The notes below the pieces were generated by a model, which saw only the letters and a program-made list of their open reading frames with translations, had not been told where the DNA came from and ran no database searches. Both the position numbers and the translations under genes were made by a program. Below, in pieces: positions 1 through 4,373 of a DNA stretch of 4,373 nucleotides; the stretch's first letter is position 1; the number at the start of each line of letters is the position of its first letter. Source of the DNA: a virus (taxonomy: Duplodnaviria > Heunggongvirae > Uroviricota > Caudoviricetes); the IMG/VR virus record IMGVR_UViG_2537562012_000005, one strand, 5' to 3'.

Positions 1-288
1 GAGTTCCGGCGGGCAGACTGGCGGCGGATGTTATCAGAAATGTCAGCGTCAGAACTGGGCGAATGGGGGGATTTCTTCCGGAAGCAGAGTTTCGGGGATA
101 TCTGGCTGGATGCACAGATTTCCACACTGAAGTCGCTGATGGTTCAGATGGTGTCCGGTGAACGTATTCCGGCGGATGATTTCAGTCTGGTTACGGATGA
201 CAGGGTGATCCCTGAACGCACGGATGAAGAGCTGATGCATCTGGGGGAAGGTATATCGGGAGGAATGAGATTTGGACCAGATTGCTGA
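1..288 (+). CDS. 3' end of the gene immediately upstream of the tape measure gene; by position the T-like extension of the tail assembly chaperone (lambda gpG/gpGT equivalent). 5'-partial: frame 1 is open from base 1, and the ATG at 28 is internal.
   Basis: Frame 1 is open from position 1 to the TGA at 286-288. It sits directly upstream of, and overlaps by 17 nt, the H-like tape measure gene, as the G/T chaperone genes do in lambda. I cannot confirm sequence-level similarity to gpT from memory, so the product call is by synteny only. The G-T slippery site would lie upstream of the window. Confidence 0.5.
   Translation, partial: EFRRADWRRMLSEMSASELGEWGDFFRKQSFGDIWLDAQISTLKSLMVQMVSGERIPADDFSLVTDDRVIPERTDEELMHLGEGISGGMRFGPDC
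258..263 (+). promoter_or_regulatory. Shine-Dalgarno sequence (GGGAGG) for the tape measure gene
   Basis: GGGAGG at 258-263 lies 8 nt upstream of the TTG at 272, which is the first possible initiation codon after the in-frame TGA at 266-268. Confidence 0.6.
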
Positions 289-3200
289 CCTTGTCATTGA
301 TTTAAGCATTGATACCGCCGATTTTAAAGAGCAGCTTCCGCGTGTAAAAAATCTGCTGAATGGTACAGCAAGGGAGGCGGAGCGGGCCGAAGCCCGTATG
401 AAACGGTTTGAGGAAAGTCAGAAACAGGCTGCCAGCGCGACGGTGATACAGACTCAGGCCGTGGTGAAGCATGCGCAGGGGCATGTTTCGCTGGCGGAAG
501 ATGTGGAAAGGGCGCGCCTGCGGATGGAGGCCCTGAGTCGTCAGATGCGGGAGGAGCAGGTTCAGGCGGCTGCGCTGGCTGCGGCGCAGGATAAGATGGC
601 AGCCGCATTTTATCGTCAGATCGACAGCGTAAAACAGGCCAGTGCGGGGCTGCAGGAGTTACAGCGTATTCAGCAGCAGATCCGACAGGCCAGAAACAGT
701 GGCGGGATTGGTCAGCAGGATTATCTGGCGCTGATTTCTGAGGTTACGGCGAAAACCCGTGTTCTTACACAGGCTGAGGAAGAGGCTACCCGACAGAAAG
801 TGGCGTTTATCCGTCAGCTTAAAGAGCAGGCAACCCGCCAGAATCTTTCTTCTTCTGAGTTGCTTCGTGCTAAGGCTGCCCAGCTGGGGGTAAGCAGTGC
901 TGCAGAAGTGTATATCCGCAAAATGGAGCAGGCAGGAAAAGCAACGCATTCGCTGGGTCTGAAAAGTGCAGCGGCCCGTCAGGAGATAGGCGTTCTGATA
1001 GGGGAACTGGCCCGCGGCAATTTAGGTGCGCTGAGGGGATCCGGAATAACGCTGGCTAACCGTGCCGGATGGATAGACACATTGATGTCACCGAAAGGCA
1101 TGATGCTTGGCGGGGTTATTGGCGGTATTGCCGCGGCTGTCTATGGTCTGGGTAAAGCCTGGTATGACGGTCAGAAGGAGGGGGAAGAATTTAACCGCCA
1201 GCTGTCGCTGACAGGGCATTATGCCGGAGTCACTGCCGGGCAGCTGTGGACGCTCAGTCGTGCTATTTCCGGGAATGGTATCACGCAACATGCTGCAGCC
1301 GGTGCGCTGGCTCAGGTGGTGGGGAGTGGTGCATTTCGTGGAAACGATATCGGTATGGTGGCGAGAGCTGCCGCACAGATGGAGCGATCGGTTGGCCAGT
1401 CGGTCAGCGATACCATAAATCAGTTTAAGCGGCTGAAGGATGATCCTGTAAATGCCGCGAAGGCTCTGGACAATGAGCTGCATTTTCTTACTGCCACTCA
1501 GCTTGAGCAGATACGCGTCCTTGGGGAACAGGGGCGGTCCAGTGATGCGGCACGGATAGCCATGTCTGCACTGGCAGAGGAAACCGGTCGGCGTACTGCG
1601 GATATTGATAATAACCTCAATGCGCTGGGCAGTACGCTGAAGTATCTGTCTGATTTATGGAGTCGTTTCTGGGATGCGGCCATGAATATTGGTCGTGAAG
1701 ACTCGCTGGATGAACAGATTTCCGCTTTACAGGAGAAAGTGTCGCGGGCGAAAAGACTCCCCTGGACGGCATCATCTTCTCAGGTTGAGTACGATCAGCA
1801 GCGTCTTAACGAGCTTCAGGAGAAAAAACGCCAGAAGGATTTGCAGGATGCAAAAGAGCAGGCAGAGCGGAATTATCAGGAGCAACAGAAACGCCGTAAT
1901 GCTGAAAATGCTGCACTGAACCGGATGAATGAAACGGAAGCAGCACGACATCAGCGTGAAATTGCGCGTATTAATGCCATGCAGTACGCCGATCAGGCTG
2001 TCAGGGATGCGGCGATACAACGTGAAAATGAACGTTACGAGAAAGCCCTGGCATCCGGTAAGAAAAAAACACGCGAAACCCGTAATGATGAGGCCACCCG
2101 GTTATTGCTGCAGTACAGTCAGCAACAGGCACAGGTGGAAGGACAGATTGCTGCTGCAAGACAGTCAGCAGGCATTGCCACTGACAGGATGACAGAAGCG
2201 CATAAACAGCTTCTGGCTCTGCAGCAGCGCATCAGCGATCTGGACGGGAAAAAACTGACGGCAGATGAAAAGAGTGTGCTGGCCCGTAAAGATGAACTGA
2301 TTCAGGCACTGACGCTGCTGGATGTAAAACAGCAGGAGCTTCAGAAACAGACGGCACTCAACGATCTGAAGAAAAAAACAATTCAGCTGACCAGTCAACT
2401 GGCTGAAGAAGAGCGCGCTCAGCGCCAGCAACATGACCTGGATATCGCCACGGTGGGTATGGGTGATCAGCAGCGGCAGCGATATCAGGTACAACTGAGT
2501 CTTCGCCAGAAATACCAGCAACAGCTGGAGCAGTTGAGGCGGGATAGTGAGCAGAAAGGAACATATAACACGGATGACTACAGAAAGGCCGAGCAGGCGC
2601 TGACGGAGAGCCTGAACCGACAACTGAATGAGAATCGCCGTTATTGGCAACAGCTTGAAATTGCTCAGGGTGACTGGAAAAACGGAGTCCTGCGTGCACT
2701 CCAGAATGTCACTGAGAAAGCGGATAACACAGCCGGGACAGTGGAACAGTTGTTCACGTCTGCGTTCAGTAGCATGAGTGACTGGCTGGCGACATTCTGT
2801 ACTACAGGCAAACTCAATTTCAAATCCTTCACCTCTTCTGTGCTGTCAGATATGTCCAGAATCATGGCTCAGATAGCTTTAATGAAAGCGGTAAAAGGTA
2901 TTGCTTCCGCGCTGCCTTTTGATTTTGTAGCCAATGCTGATGGCGGTGTTTATCAGTCGGCTGATTTGAGTCGCTACAGTGGCACGGTGGTTAACCGTCC
3001 GACGTTTTTTGCTTTTGCAAAAGGCGCGGGTGTGATGGGGGAAGCTGGACCTGAAGCCATTCTGCCACTGCGTCGTGGTGCTGATGGTAAGCTGGGGGTT
3101 GTGGCGGATATTGGTGGTTCAGGTATGGCGATGTTTGCCCCGCAGTACAACATCGAGATCAATAACGATGGCACGAACGGGCAGATAGGTCCGGCTGCCC

Positions 3201-3295
3201 TGAAGGTGGTTTATGACCTTGGGAAAAAAGCGGCAGCGGACTTTATGCAACAGCAGGCCCGTGATGGTGGTCGGTTAAGTGGAGCATATCGGTAA
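272..3295 (+). CDS. H: Tail tape measure protein (lambda gpH family), 1007 aa, TTG start
   Basis: 3 kb ORF with a Gln/Glu/Lys/Arg/Ala-rich coiled-coil character throughout. The N-terminus (DQIADLVIDLSIDTADFKEQLPRV) parallels lambda gpH (VGDLVVDLSLDAARFDEQMARV). An internal hydrophobic Gly-rich segment (MMLGGVIGGIAAAVYGLGKAWY) parallels the lambda gpH segment ending AYAWY. The C-terminus (INNDGTNGQIGPAALKVVYD...RDGG) is near-identical to the lambda gpH C-terminus as I recall it. It is followed by M, L and K homologs in lambda order. Confidence 0.95.
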   Translation: MDQIADLVIDLSIDTADFKEQLPRVKNLLNGTAREAERAEARMKRFEESQKQAASATVIQTQAVVKHAQGHVSLAEDVERARLRMEALSRQMREEQVQAAALAAAQDKMAAAFYRQIDSVKQASAGLQELQRIQQQIRQARNSGGIGQQDYLALISEVTAKTRVLTQAEEEATRQKVAFIRQLKEQATRQNLSSSELLRAKAAQLGVSSAAEVYIRKMEQAGKATHSLGLKSAAARQEIGVLIGELARGNLGALRGSGITLANRAGWIDTLMSPKGMMLGGVIGGIAAAVYGLGKAWYDGQKEGEEFNRQLSLTGHYAGVTAGQLWTLSRAISGNGITQHAAAGALAQVVGSGAFRGNDIGMVARAAAQMERSVGQSVSDTINQFKRLKDDPVNAAKALDNELHFLTATQLEQIRVLGEQGRSSDAARIAMSALAEETGRRTADIDNNLNALGSTLKYLSDLWSRFWDAAMNIGREDSLDEQISALQEKVSRAKRLPWTASSSQVEYDQQRLNELQEKKRQKDLQDAKEQAERNYQEQQKRRNAENAALNRMNETEAARHQREIARINAMQYADQAVRDAAIQRENERYEKALASGKKKTRETRNDEATRLLLQYSQQQAQVEGQIAAARQSAGIATDRMTEAHKQLLALQQRISDLDGKKLTADEKSVLARKDELIQALTLLDVKQQELQKQTALNDLKKKTIQLTSQLAEEERAQRQQHDLDIATVGMGDQQRQRYQVQLSLRQKYQQQLEQLRRDSEQKGTYNTDDYRKAEQALTESLNRQLNENRRYWQQLEIAQGDWKNGVLRALQNVTEKADNTAGTVEQLFTSAFSSMSDWLATFCTTGKLNFKSFTSSVLSDMSRIMAQIALMKAVKGIASALPFDFVANADGGVYQSADLSRYSGTVVNRPTFFAFAKGAGVMGEAGPEAILPLRRGADGKLGVVADIGGSGMAMFAPQYNIEINNDGTNGQIGPAALKVVYDLGKKAAADFMQQQARDGGRLSGAYR

Positions 3296-3624
3296 TGGAG
3301 ACGTTTCACTGGAAAGTGCGCCCGGATATGAATGTGGTATCAGAGCCGAAAGTGGTGACAGTGAAGCTGGGCGATGGTTATGAACAGCGTCGTGCGGCGG
3401 GACTGAATAACCAGTTGTCGACTTACAGCGTGACGATACGTGTTCGTAAATGTGAACACCCATCTTTGAAAGCCTTTCTGGAACGGCACGGTGGCGTCCG
3501 CGCATTTCAGTGGACGCCACCTTATGACTGGAAGCCGATCAGGGTGGTTTGTCGTAAATGGTCGGCAAGCGTGGGGGCGCTGTGGGTAACCATAACGGCA
3601 GATTTTGAACAGGTCGTGGCATAG
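3295..3624 (+). CDS. M: Minor tail protein M (lambda gpM family), 109 aa
   Basis: Same length as lambda gpM, with shared motifs from recalled sequence (WKV.P.M, GDGY.QR, TYSVT, HGG, WTPPY.W, FEQVV). The start ATG overlaps the H stop (TAATG at 3293-3297), indicating translational coupling. Confidence 0.92.
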   Translation: METFHWKVRPDMNVVSEPKVVTVKLGDGYEQRRAAGLNNQLSTYSVTIRVRKCEHPSLKAFLERHGGVRAFQWTPPYDWKPIRVVCRKWSASVGALWVTITADFEQVVA

Positions 3625-3633: not shown

Positions 3634-4332
3634 ATGCAGGATATTCCACAGGAAACACATCATGAGACGACACGCCTTACTCAGTCAGCCCAGGTGGTGC
3701 TCTGGGAAATCGATCTGACAGAGGTCGGTGGTGAACGTTATTTTTTCTGTAATGAGCAGAACGAAAAAGGTGAGCCGGTCACCTGGCAGGGGCGGCAGTA
3801 TCAGGCATACCCCATTCAGGGGACGGGATTTGAACTGAACGGTAAGGGCAGTGCTGCCCGTCCGACACTGACGGTCTCTAACCTGCACGGCATGGTCACC
3901 GGGATGGCGGAAGACCTGCAGAGTCTGGTCGGCGGAACGGTGGTCAGGCGTAAGGTTTACGCCCGTTTTCTGGATGCGGTGAACTTCGTCAACGGAAACA
4001 GCGACGCCGATCCGGAGCAGGAGGTGATCAGCCGCTGGCGCATCGAGCAGTGTAGCGAACTGAGTGCGGTCAGTGCCTCCTTTGTGCTCTCCACACCGAC
4101 GGAAACGGATGGTGCTGTTTTTCCGGGGCGCATCATGCTGGCCAACACCTGCACCTGGACCTATCGCGGTGATGAGTGCGGTTATCACGGTCCGGCTGTC
4201 GCTGATGAATATGACCAGCCGACGTCCGATATCACGAAGGATAAATGCAGCAAATGCCTGAGTGGCTGTAAGTTTCGCAATAACGTCGGCAACTTTGGCG
4301 GCTTCCTTTCCATTAACAAACTTTCGCAGTAA
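3634..4332 (+). CDS. L: Tail tip assembly protein L (lambda gpL family), 232 aa, with C-terminal Cys cluster
   Basis: Same length as lambda gpL and near-identical over long stretches to my recollection of it (VVLWEIDLTEVGGERYFFCNEQNEKGEPVTWQGRQYQ, RIMLANTCTWTYRGDECGY, KDKCSKCLSGCKFRNNVGNFGGFLSINKLSQ). Five Cys residues sit in the C-terminal domain. Confidence 0.95.
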   Translation: MQDIPQETHHETTRLTQSAQVVLWEIDLTEVGGERYFFCNEQNEKGEPVTWQGRQYQAYPIQGTGFELNGKGSAARPTLTVSNLHGMVTGMAEDLQSLVGGTVVRRKVYARFLDAVNFVNGNSDADPEQEVISRWRIEQCSELSAVSASFVLSTPTETDGAVFPGRIMLANTCTWTYRGDECGYHGPAVADEYDQPTSDITKDKCSKCLSGCKFRNNVGNFGGFLSINKLSQ

Positions 4333-4336
4333 TCCC

Positions 4337-4373
4337 ATGACACAGACAGAATCAGCGATTCTGGCGCACGCCC
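4337..4373 (+). CDS. K: Tail assembly protein K (lambda gpK family), N-terminal 12 codons only, 3'-partial at window edge
   Basis: The ATG at 4337 lies 4 nt after the L stop and encodes MTQTESAILAHA, which matches the lambda gpK N-terminus as I recall it. It sits in the expected position after L. Confidence 0.75.
   Translation, partial: MTQTESAILAHA

Follow-up and report, generated by a model that had tools for sequence, protein, structure and literature searches.

The tail of bacteriophage lambda is about 150 nm long. Its tape measure protein (TMP), gpH, is encoded by a gene H of 2562 nucleotides (nt) and has 853 amino acids (aa). In the tip complex, gpI holds the C-terminus of gpH (aa 818–849), and the remainder of the protein occupies the interior of a 132.7-nm tube with 31 discs; a hydrophobic segment (aa 116–140) has been discussed as a possible transmembrane helix, and a Gly-rich stretch is the site of cleavage of gpH to gpH* (PMC12617516). 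Ruler constants obtained from deletion series are 0.15 nm per residue (Katsura, as cited in PMC1796659) and, in TP901-1, 0.145 nm per residue (PMC5099701). For TMPs built from repeats, tail length scales at about 0.145–0.15 nm per residue (PMC5099701, PMC13585406, PMC1796659). Here, we analysed the TMP gene on a 4373-nt stretch of caudoviral DNA (IMG/VR record IMGVR_UViG_2537562012_000005), referred to as the window, which is the whole 4373-bp contig AQDA01000011.1 of draft assembly GCA_000354295.1. The deposited protein (EMV39901.1/WP_001700079.1; Escherichia coli BCE002_MS12) is labelled 'phage tail tape measure protein, lambda family'.

The open reading frame (ORF) at 272–3295 encodes a lambda-family tail length TMP of 1007 aa, and its net extra length relative to gpH lies wholly N-terminal to the hydrophobic segment. 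The gene, its upstream signal and the parts of the protein are as follows.

258–264, + strand: Shine–Dalgarno-like GGGAGGA 5' of the TMP start (read in the sequence)
272–3295, + strand: tail length tape measure protein gene, 1007 aa, TTG start, TAA stop (Pfam, TIGR01541, phrog_24)
272–397, + strand: conserved N-terminal cap, aa 1–42 (DLVIDLSID.A.F..Q..RVK...), common to lambda gpH aa 3–42
398–562, + strand: variable helical leader, aa 43–97, poorly conserved and indel-prone in alignments
563–919, + strand: conserved N-terminal extension module of 119 aa, aa 98–216 (conserved alignment columns; hidden Markov model, HMM)
920–1516, + strand: TMP_2 domain (PF06791), aa 217–415 (E = 2.7e-49), equivalent to lambda gpH aa 54–256
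1082–1162, + strand: hydrophobic, putative membrane-spanning segment, aa 271–297 (GMMLGGVIGGIAAAVYGLG; Kyte–Doolittle 19-residue mean peak 1.58)
2084–2317, + strand: TMP_4 domain (PF24622), aa 605–682 (E = 1.5e-16, 60.7 bits)
2669–2893, + strand: Tape_meas_lam_C domain (PF09718), aa 800–874 (E = 4.8e-24, 84.7 bits against a cut-off of 23)

The assignment to the lambda family is carried by domain matches, by gene order and by the two ends of the protein. TMP_2 was matched over the full model at 168.1 bits (gathering cut-off 30.2), TIGR01541 at 279.5 bits (cut-off 104.75) and phrog_24 across the full length of the TMP. The gene occupies the same place as H in the lambda order T-H-M-L, with Phage_tail_T upstream and Phage_min_tail and Phage_tail_L downstream. 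In the cap, aa 2–41 pair with gpH 3–42 (BLASTP, 43% identity, E = 4e-7) and form invariant columns in the multiple alignment; near the C-terminus, INNDGTNGQIGPAALK is invariant in the alignment with gpH and contacts gpI in lambda. The two proteins also share TMP_2, Tape_meas_lam_C and the hydrophobic segment, and are colinear over their full length at 25–29% identity. They differ in that the 119-aa module is missing from lambda, whose leader is also shorter; TMP_2 begins at aa 54 in lambda and at aa 217 in the window TMP. The window TMP is furthermore about 28 aa shorter and much less Gly-rich at aa 875–945 (approximately 2890–3110), where it carries a GVMGEAGPEAILPL motif instead, and it scores for TMP_4, for which no match to gpH was reported in the same Pfam scan.

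A sequence-only reading of the window had proposed that the TMP has 1007 aa against 853 aa for gpH, that its hydrophobic segment lies near aa 270 rather than near aa 120, and that the additional residues fall in an Ala/Glu/Gln/Arg-rich, coiled-coil stretch between the conserved N-terminus and this segment, within 272–1069. The lengths were borne out by the gene boundaries, and the hydrophobic peaks were located by the Kyte–Doolittle scale at aa 271–297 in the window TMP and aa 105–138 in lambda. The window segment lies within TMP_2 and is aligned with lambda from aa 122 onward. In BLASTP, aa 278–1007 pair with gpH 122–853, and Pfam places Tape_meas_lam_C at aa 800–874 in the window TMP and at aa 627–701 in lambda. 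In a global alignment, the offset of the window TMP relative to gpH rises from 0 to between +156 and +159 by window aa 278 (lambda aa 122); past this point, along the central rod, it ranges from +141 to +186, and its final value is +154, lowered by the Gly-rich C-terminal region of lambda, which is about 28 aa longer. The net gain is therefore complete by aa 278 and is not spread evenly. MAFFT alignment of lambda with long TMPs scattered lambda residues 54–120 over the insert, and the extra length was therefore placed using the Pfam coordinates and the global alignment with cheap gap extension. The composition of aa 54–216 (18% Ala, 14% Gln, 9% Arg, 9% Leu and 8% Glu) is as the earlier reading described, and its interval (aa 1–266) brackets the region.

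The boundary between leader and module was drawn by aligning N-terminal fragments of E. coli, Salmonella, Shigella and Yersinia origin. The module makes up most of the 'extra' length and is absent from lambda. Its end, ...F.R.LKEQ....LS..ELLR.KAAQLGVSSAA.VYIR, directly adjoins TMP_2. Invariant or near-invariant positions include Phe113, Arg115, Gln116, Asp150, Tyr151, Leu152, Phe179, Leu183, Lys184, Leu198, Ala202, Ala203, Gly206, Tyr214 and Ile215, and such residues persist in sequences that are just 41–55% identical overall. Scans of the window TMP gave no Pfam or NCBIfam model covering the module; in PHROGs it is covered by the full-length TMP family phrog_24 and by fragment families labelled 'unknown function'. 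In the leader, an indel at about aa 53–66 (window 428–470) separates the window TMP and the EC11 type (1007 aa) from the cdtI type (1018 aa), which has 11 additional residues (AARQTTQAASS-like); the fragment P0005 has the short form. The PDB chain 9l9p_B, a TMP of 957 aa, contains the second half of the module (...FMDALNGQ...) followed by the lambda-like motif. The layout of this chain shows that lambda retains only the sequence that follows the module.

Residues 1–430 were modelled with AF2 using a 23-sequence alignment, for which homologues were searched with aa 1–266 and consisted of partial proteins only (at most 466 aa). Helices were predicted, at modest-to-low confidence, at aa 15–142, 148–190, 194–205 and 208–227, with the leader falling within the first of these. 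Since confidence was low, the model was used for secondary structure alone and no fold search was made. The dominant hydrophobic period of aa 15–216 is 3.5 residues, with a heptad contrast of z = 3.5 against shuffled sequences; the corresponding value for the ruler rod of lambda is z = 3.3. The proposed coiled coil is thus supported in that the stretch is predicted to be helical with a heptad-like period. Local alignments of the insert with the lambda central rod gave z = 3.8 at low identity, as is typical of coiled-coil composition. Internal duplication was considered as a source of the length and rejected (insert against the rest of the protein, z = −0.8; first against second half, z = −0.7). 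Nor is the window protein a TMP expanded by tandem repeats: it contains one module match, and copies in tandem are confined to longer relatives.

The architecture is not peculiar to the window. The whole window is 93–95% identical at the nucleotide level to the cultured phages HannyBb, cdtI, mEp460, Tritos and Ayreon, and at least 80% of the gene is present in about 1800 of 5426 complete E. coli genomes. From the records, the TMP has 1018 aa in cdtI, 1021 aa in mEp460, 1021 aa in Ayreon and 1045 aa in phi80. The TMPs of cdtI (gp13), mEp460 (gp13), Ayreon, HannyBb and Tritos have a domain layout identical to that of the window TMP, in which a single module copy immediately precedes TMP_2, and the cdtI type is 98.7% identical to the window protein from aa 140 on; the first 120 or so residues of the window TMP are instead of the EC11 type, 60% identical to cdtI and 11 aa shorter. 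A single copy directly before TMP_2 is likewise found in EC11 and in phi80, and none in lambda. The phi80 TMP has the cap, the leader and one module copy (phi80 aa 111–229) adjoining TMP_2 (aa 230–427), but is only 37.5% identical overall and 38 aa longer. A tblastn search with aa 43–216 detected the stretch in phi80, Fels-1, Gifsy-1, Gifsy-2, mEp043, mEp213 and LLS; the Fels-1, Gifsy-1 and Gifsy-2 TMPs are grouped with phi80 as the same architecture.

To survey lengths, for which the partial homologues were unsuited, the TMP_2 region was searched with HMMER against 1.84 billion representatives (3907 matches), and the best 150 of these were taken, of which 73 were full length and carried the lam_C domain. 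Among these 73, the segment before TMP_2 spans 18–355 aa (median 198) and the total length 803–1195 aa (median 1018), the two being correlated with r = 0.94, whereas the distance from TMP_2 to lam_C varies just from 502 to 639 aa. The window TMP (216 aa before TMP_2, 1007 aa in total) sits at the median and lambda (56 aa, 853 aa) near the short end. The unusualness implied by the sequence-only reading is not upheld: in the present sample, lambda itself ranks among the short members of its TMP family, and a length above that of lambda is no sign of it. The window TMP is of an ordinary, already annotated and widespread architecture, and lambda is the short exception.

Module copies follow the length of this N-terminal segment. 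The module HMM gave no match in lambda and most proteins with fewer than about 165 aa before TMP_2, with half-module matches in eight proteins (79–163 aa), one match in about 34 of the 50 proteins with 170–259 aa, and two matches in eight of the 14 with 279–393 aa, adjacent in seven. The KAAQLGVS-type motif tracks the same pattern of zero, one and two; its copies are 84–98 aa apart in five of six two-copy proteins, and it is almost never found elsewhere in the proteins (three matches in 109 proteins). The N-terminal stretch is thus where this family chiefly varies in length, in part through the gain, loss and tandem duplication of the module. In this respect, the family resembles TP901-1 and the siphophage tandem-repeat TMPs, in which length also changes through repeated helical units, but its unit is long, lies N-terminally before the hydrophobic segment and is single in the window TMP. 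Three family representatives (P0198, P0210 and P0223) of 1753–1881 aa have ordinary N-terminal offsets of 157–227 aa, so that their extra 700–800 aa must lie after TMP_2, either as another way of reaching a long TMP or as a fused domain.

The allele on the window is a mosaic, with one further feature inside the TMP gene.

600–700, + strand: recombination or chimera joint (sliding identity)

From nt 1 to about nt 650 the window is approximately 100% identical to an EC11-type prophage, and from nt 650 to nt 4373 approximately 100% identical to the cdtI/CUVET type; in the protein, aa 1–120 are 100% identical to the EC11 type and aa 140–1007 are 98.7% identical to the cdtI type. The EC11-type prophage, with its 1007-aa TMP, is present in 18 complete genomes, mostly bovine. 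Across the joint, identity exceeds 88.6% in none of the 5426 complete E. coli genomes examined, and the only record of the exact protein is this one 4.4-kb draft contig. The allele is either a natural recombinant or a short-read assembly chimera of two co-resident prophages. Natural recombination is usual for lambdoid prophages. Both parental types carry the extension, and the finding of extra length is therefore unaffected by the joint.

If the window TMP functions as in lambda, its C-terminus would be anchored in the tail tip complex beside the M- and L-like proteins, the remainder would run through the tube lumen as an extended rod of helix, and its N-terminal end would stop tube polymerisation. 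Should the N-terminal extension also lie extended in the lumen, the 154 extra residues would correspond to about 23 nm, or 5–6 tube discs on a lambda-sized tail; the sequence-only reading had predicted about 20 nm at roughly 0.15 nm per residue. In both parental prophage types the major tail protein is 55–56% identical to gpV, of equal length and aligned without gaps, which makes a similar disc rise plausible. We consider the best explanation of the whole, with a probability of roughly 0.7, to be a genuine lambda-family TMP of the cdtI/mEp460/phi80 type, in which the extra N-terminal residues would act as ruler length and give a tail about 23 nm longer than that of lambda.

Several observations weigh against this explanation. 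The AF2 confidence is modest to low (pLDDT 50–78 in the extension, mean 48 overall). Conservation of the module exceeds what a pure spacer would need, which leaves room for a function beyond length. The length survey took the best 150 matches to the window protein's own TMP_2 and, being ranked by similarity to it, is biased towards relatives of the window. Finally, a genome announcement puts the tails of Ayreon, which has a TMP of 1021 aa, at '+/-120 nm' (PMC5764929), an approximate value for which neither the method nor the number of particles is stated. This value is shorter than the tail of lambda and does not support a longer tail, yet it is too rough to refute one. It was the only EM value found in the literature for a phage with this TMP architecture; no usable tail measurement was found for phi80, mEp460, Gifsy or HannyBb. 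The tails of phi80 are reportedly longer than those of lambda (Katsura and Hendrix in 1984, after Youderian), which was not used as evidence here.

The Ayreon figure, together with the invariant and near-invariant module residues at 41–55% overall identity and the approximately 127 residues of the TP901-1 TMP that add nothing to tail length (PMC5099701), would fit a different account in which the extension is not ruler length and the tail is no longer than that of lambda. In that case the module would be a domain with a function of its own, such as docking the G/GT chaperones, sitting in the neck or terminator region, or contributing to the trans-envelope conduit after ejection. We think this unlikely: the extension is predicted to be a long uninterrupted helix with heptad-like periodicity as in the accepted ruler region, it varies continuously from 18 to 355 aa and covers almost all of the length variation in the family, as expected of the part that sets length, and the Ayreon figure is an uncalibrated estimate. 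A more novel reading, considered less likely than not, is that the module of about 90–120 aa (aa 98–216) may be a discrete, duplicable 'ruler cassette', with no copy in lambda, one here and in phi80 and cdtI, and two in the longest relatives, giving tail steps of about 14–18 nm; its conserved F..LKEQ...ELL.YKAAQLGVS motif might then offer a docking site in each copy, for instance to the G/GT chaperones.

That the long ORF is itself an artefact of assembly or fusion, through a lost stop or joined genes, was raised by the sequence-only reading and is rejected as highly improbable. The window is an entire draft contig, the exact protein is known from that contig only, and its gene is chimeric between two prophage types with a joint unseen in the complete genomes. 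The parental types nevertheless share one architecture and are almost equal in length (1007 aa in 18 complete genomes; 1018–1021 aa in cultured phages and about 1800 genomes), versions of 1007–1045 aa occur in cultured phages and about 1800 complete genomes, the TMP is colinear with gpH from residue 1 to the last, and a chimeric joint alters the allele and not the extra length. Even less credence is given to a true start further downstream that would leave the extension untranslated. The start codon (272–274) is TTG in the window and in EC11-type prophages, a codon rarer than ATG, but it stands in the same alignment column as the ATG of cdtI, CUVET20-1667, phi80 and lambda H, and GGAGG is invariant 8–9 nt before the start in the alignment of cdtI, CUVET20-1667, EC11, phi80 and lambda. 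Residues 2–41 are conserved with gpH 3–42, and RefSeq/PGAP calls the same boundaries (a 3024-nt gene) for the E. coli EC11 homologue. A wrong start was rejected on the start-codon alignment, the conserved cap and the PGAP call.

Four co-oriented tail genes lie on the window in lambda order, namely the 3' part of the T frame, the TMP gene and genes for gpM-like and gpL-like proteins; those flanking the TMP gene are as follows.

1–288, + strand: tail assembly chaperone T-domain frame (gpT-like), 3' part (Pfam Phage_tail_T, E = 7.9e-14)
3295–3624, + strand: gpM-like distal tail protein gene (Pfam Phage_min_tail, E = 1e-39)
3634–4332, + strand: gpL-like tail tip protein gene (Pfam Phage_tail_L, E = 1.8e-99)

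The window begins within the gpT-like frame, the EC11 homologue of which is annotated 'phage tail assembly protein T'. The T frame and the TMP gene overlap by 17 nt (272–288), and the TMP stop and the gpM-like start codon share one base (TAATG at 3293–3297). Such tight coupling of genes is typical of tail operons. The GC skew of the coding strand is positive (0.07–0.31) in 27 of 28 sliding windows and approximately 0 only in the last (4051–4350).

The architecture described here was already known; the description of the N-terminal module and of its variation in copy number is mildly new. As an architecture common to phi80, cdtI, mEp460 and a third of complete E. coli genomes, the long TMP of the window matters little in itself. 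The concentration of length variation in one helical N-terminal stretch, built in part from a duplicable module, provides a testable handle on the evolution of tail length in lambdoid phages.

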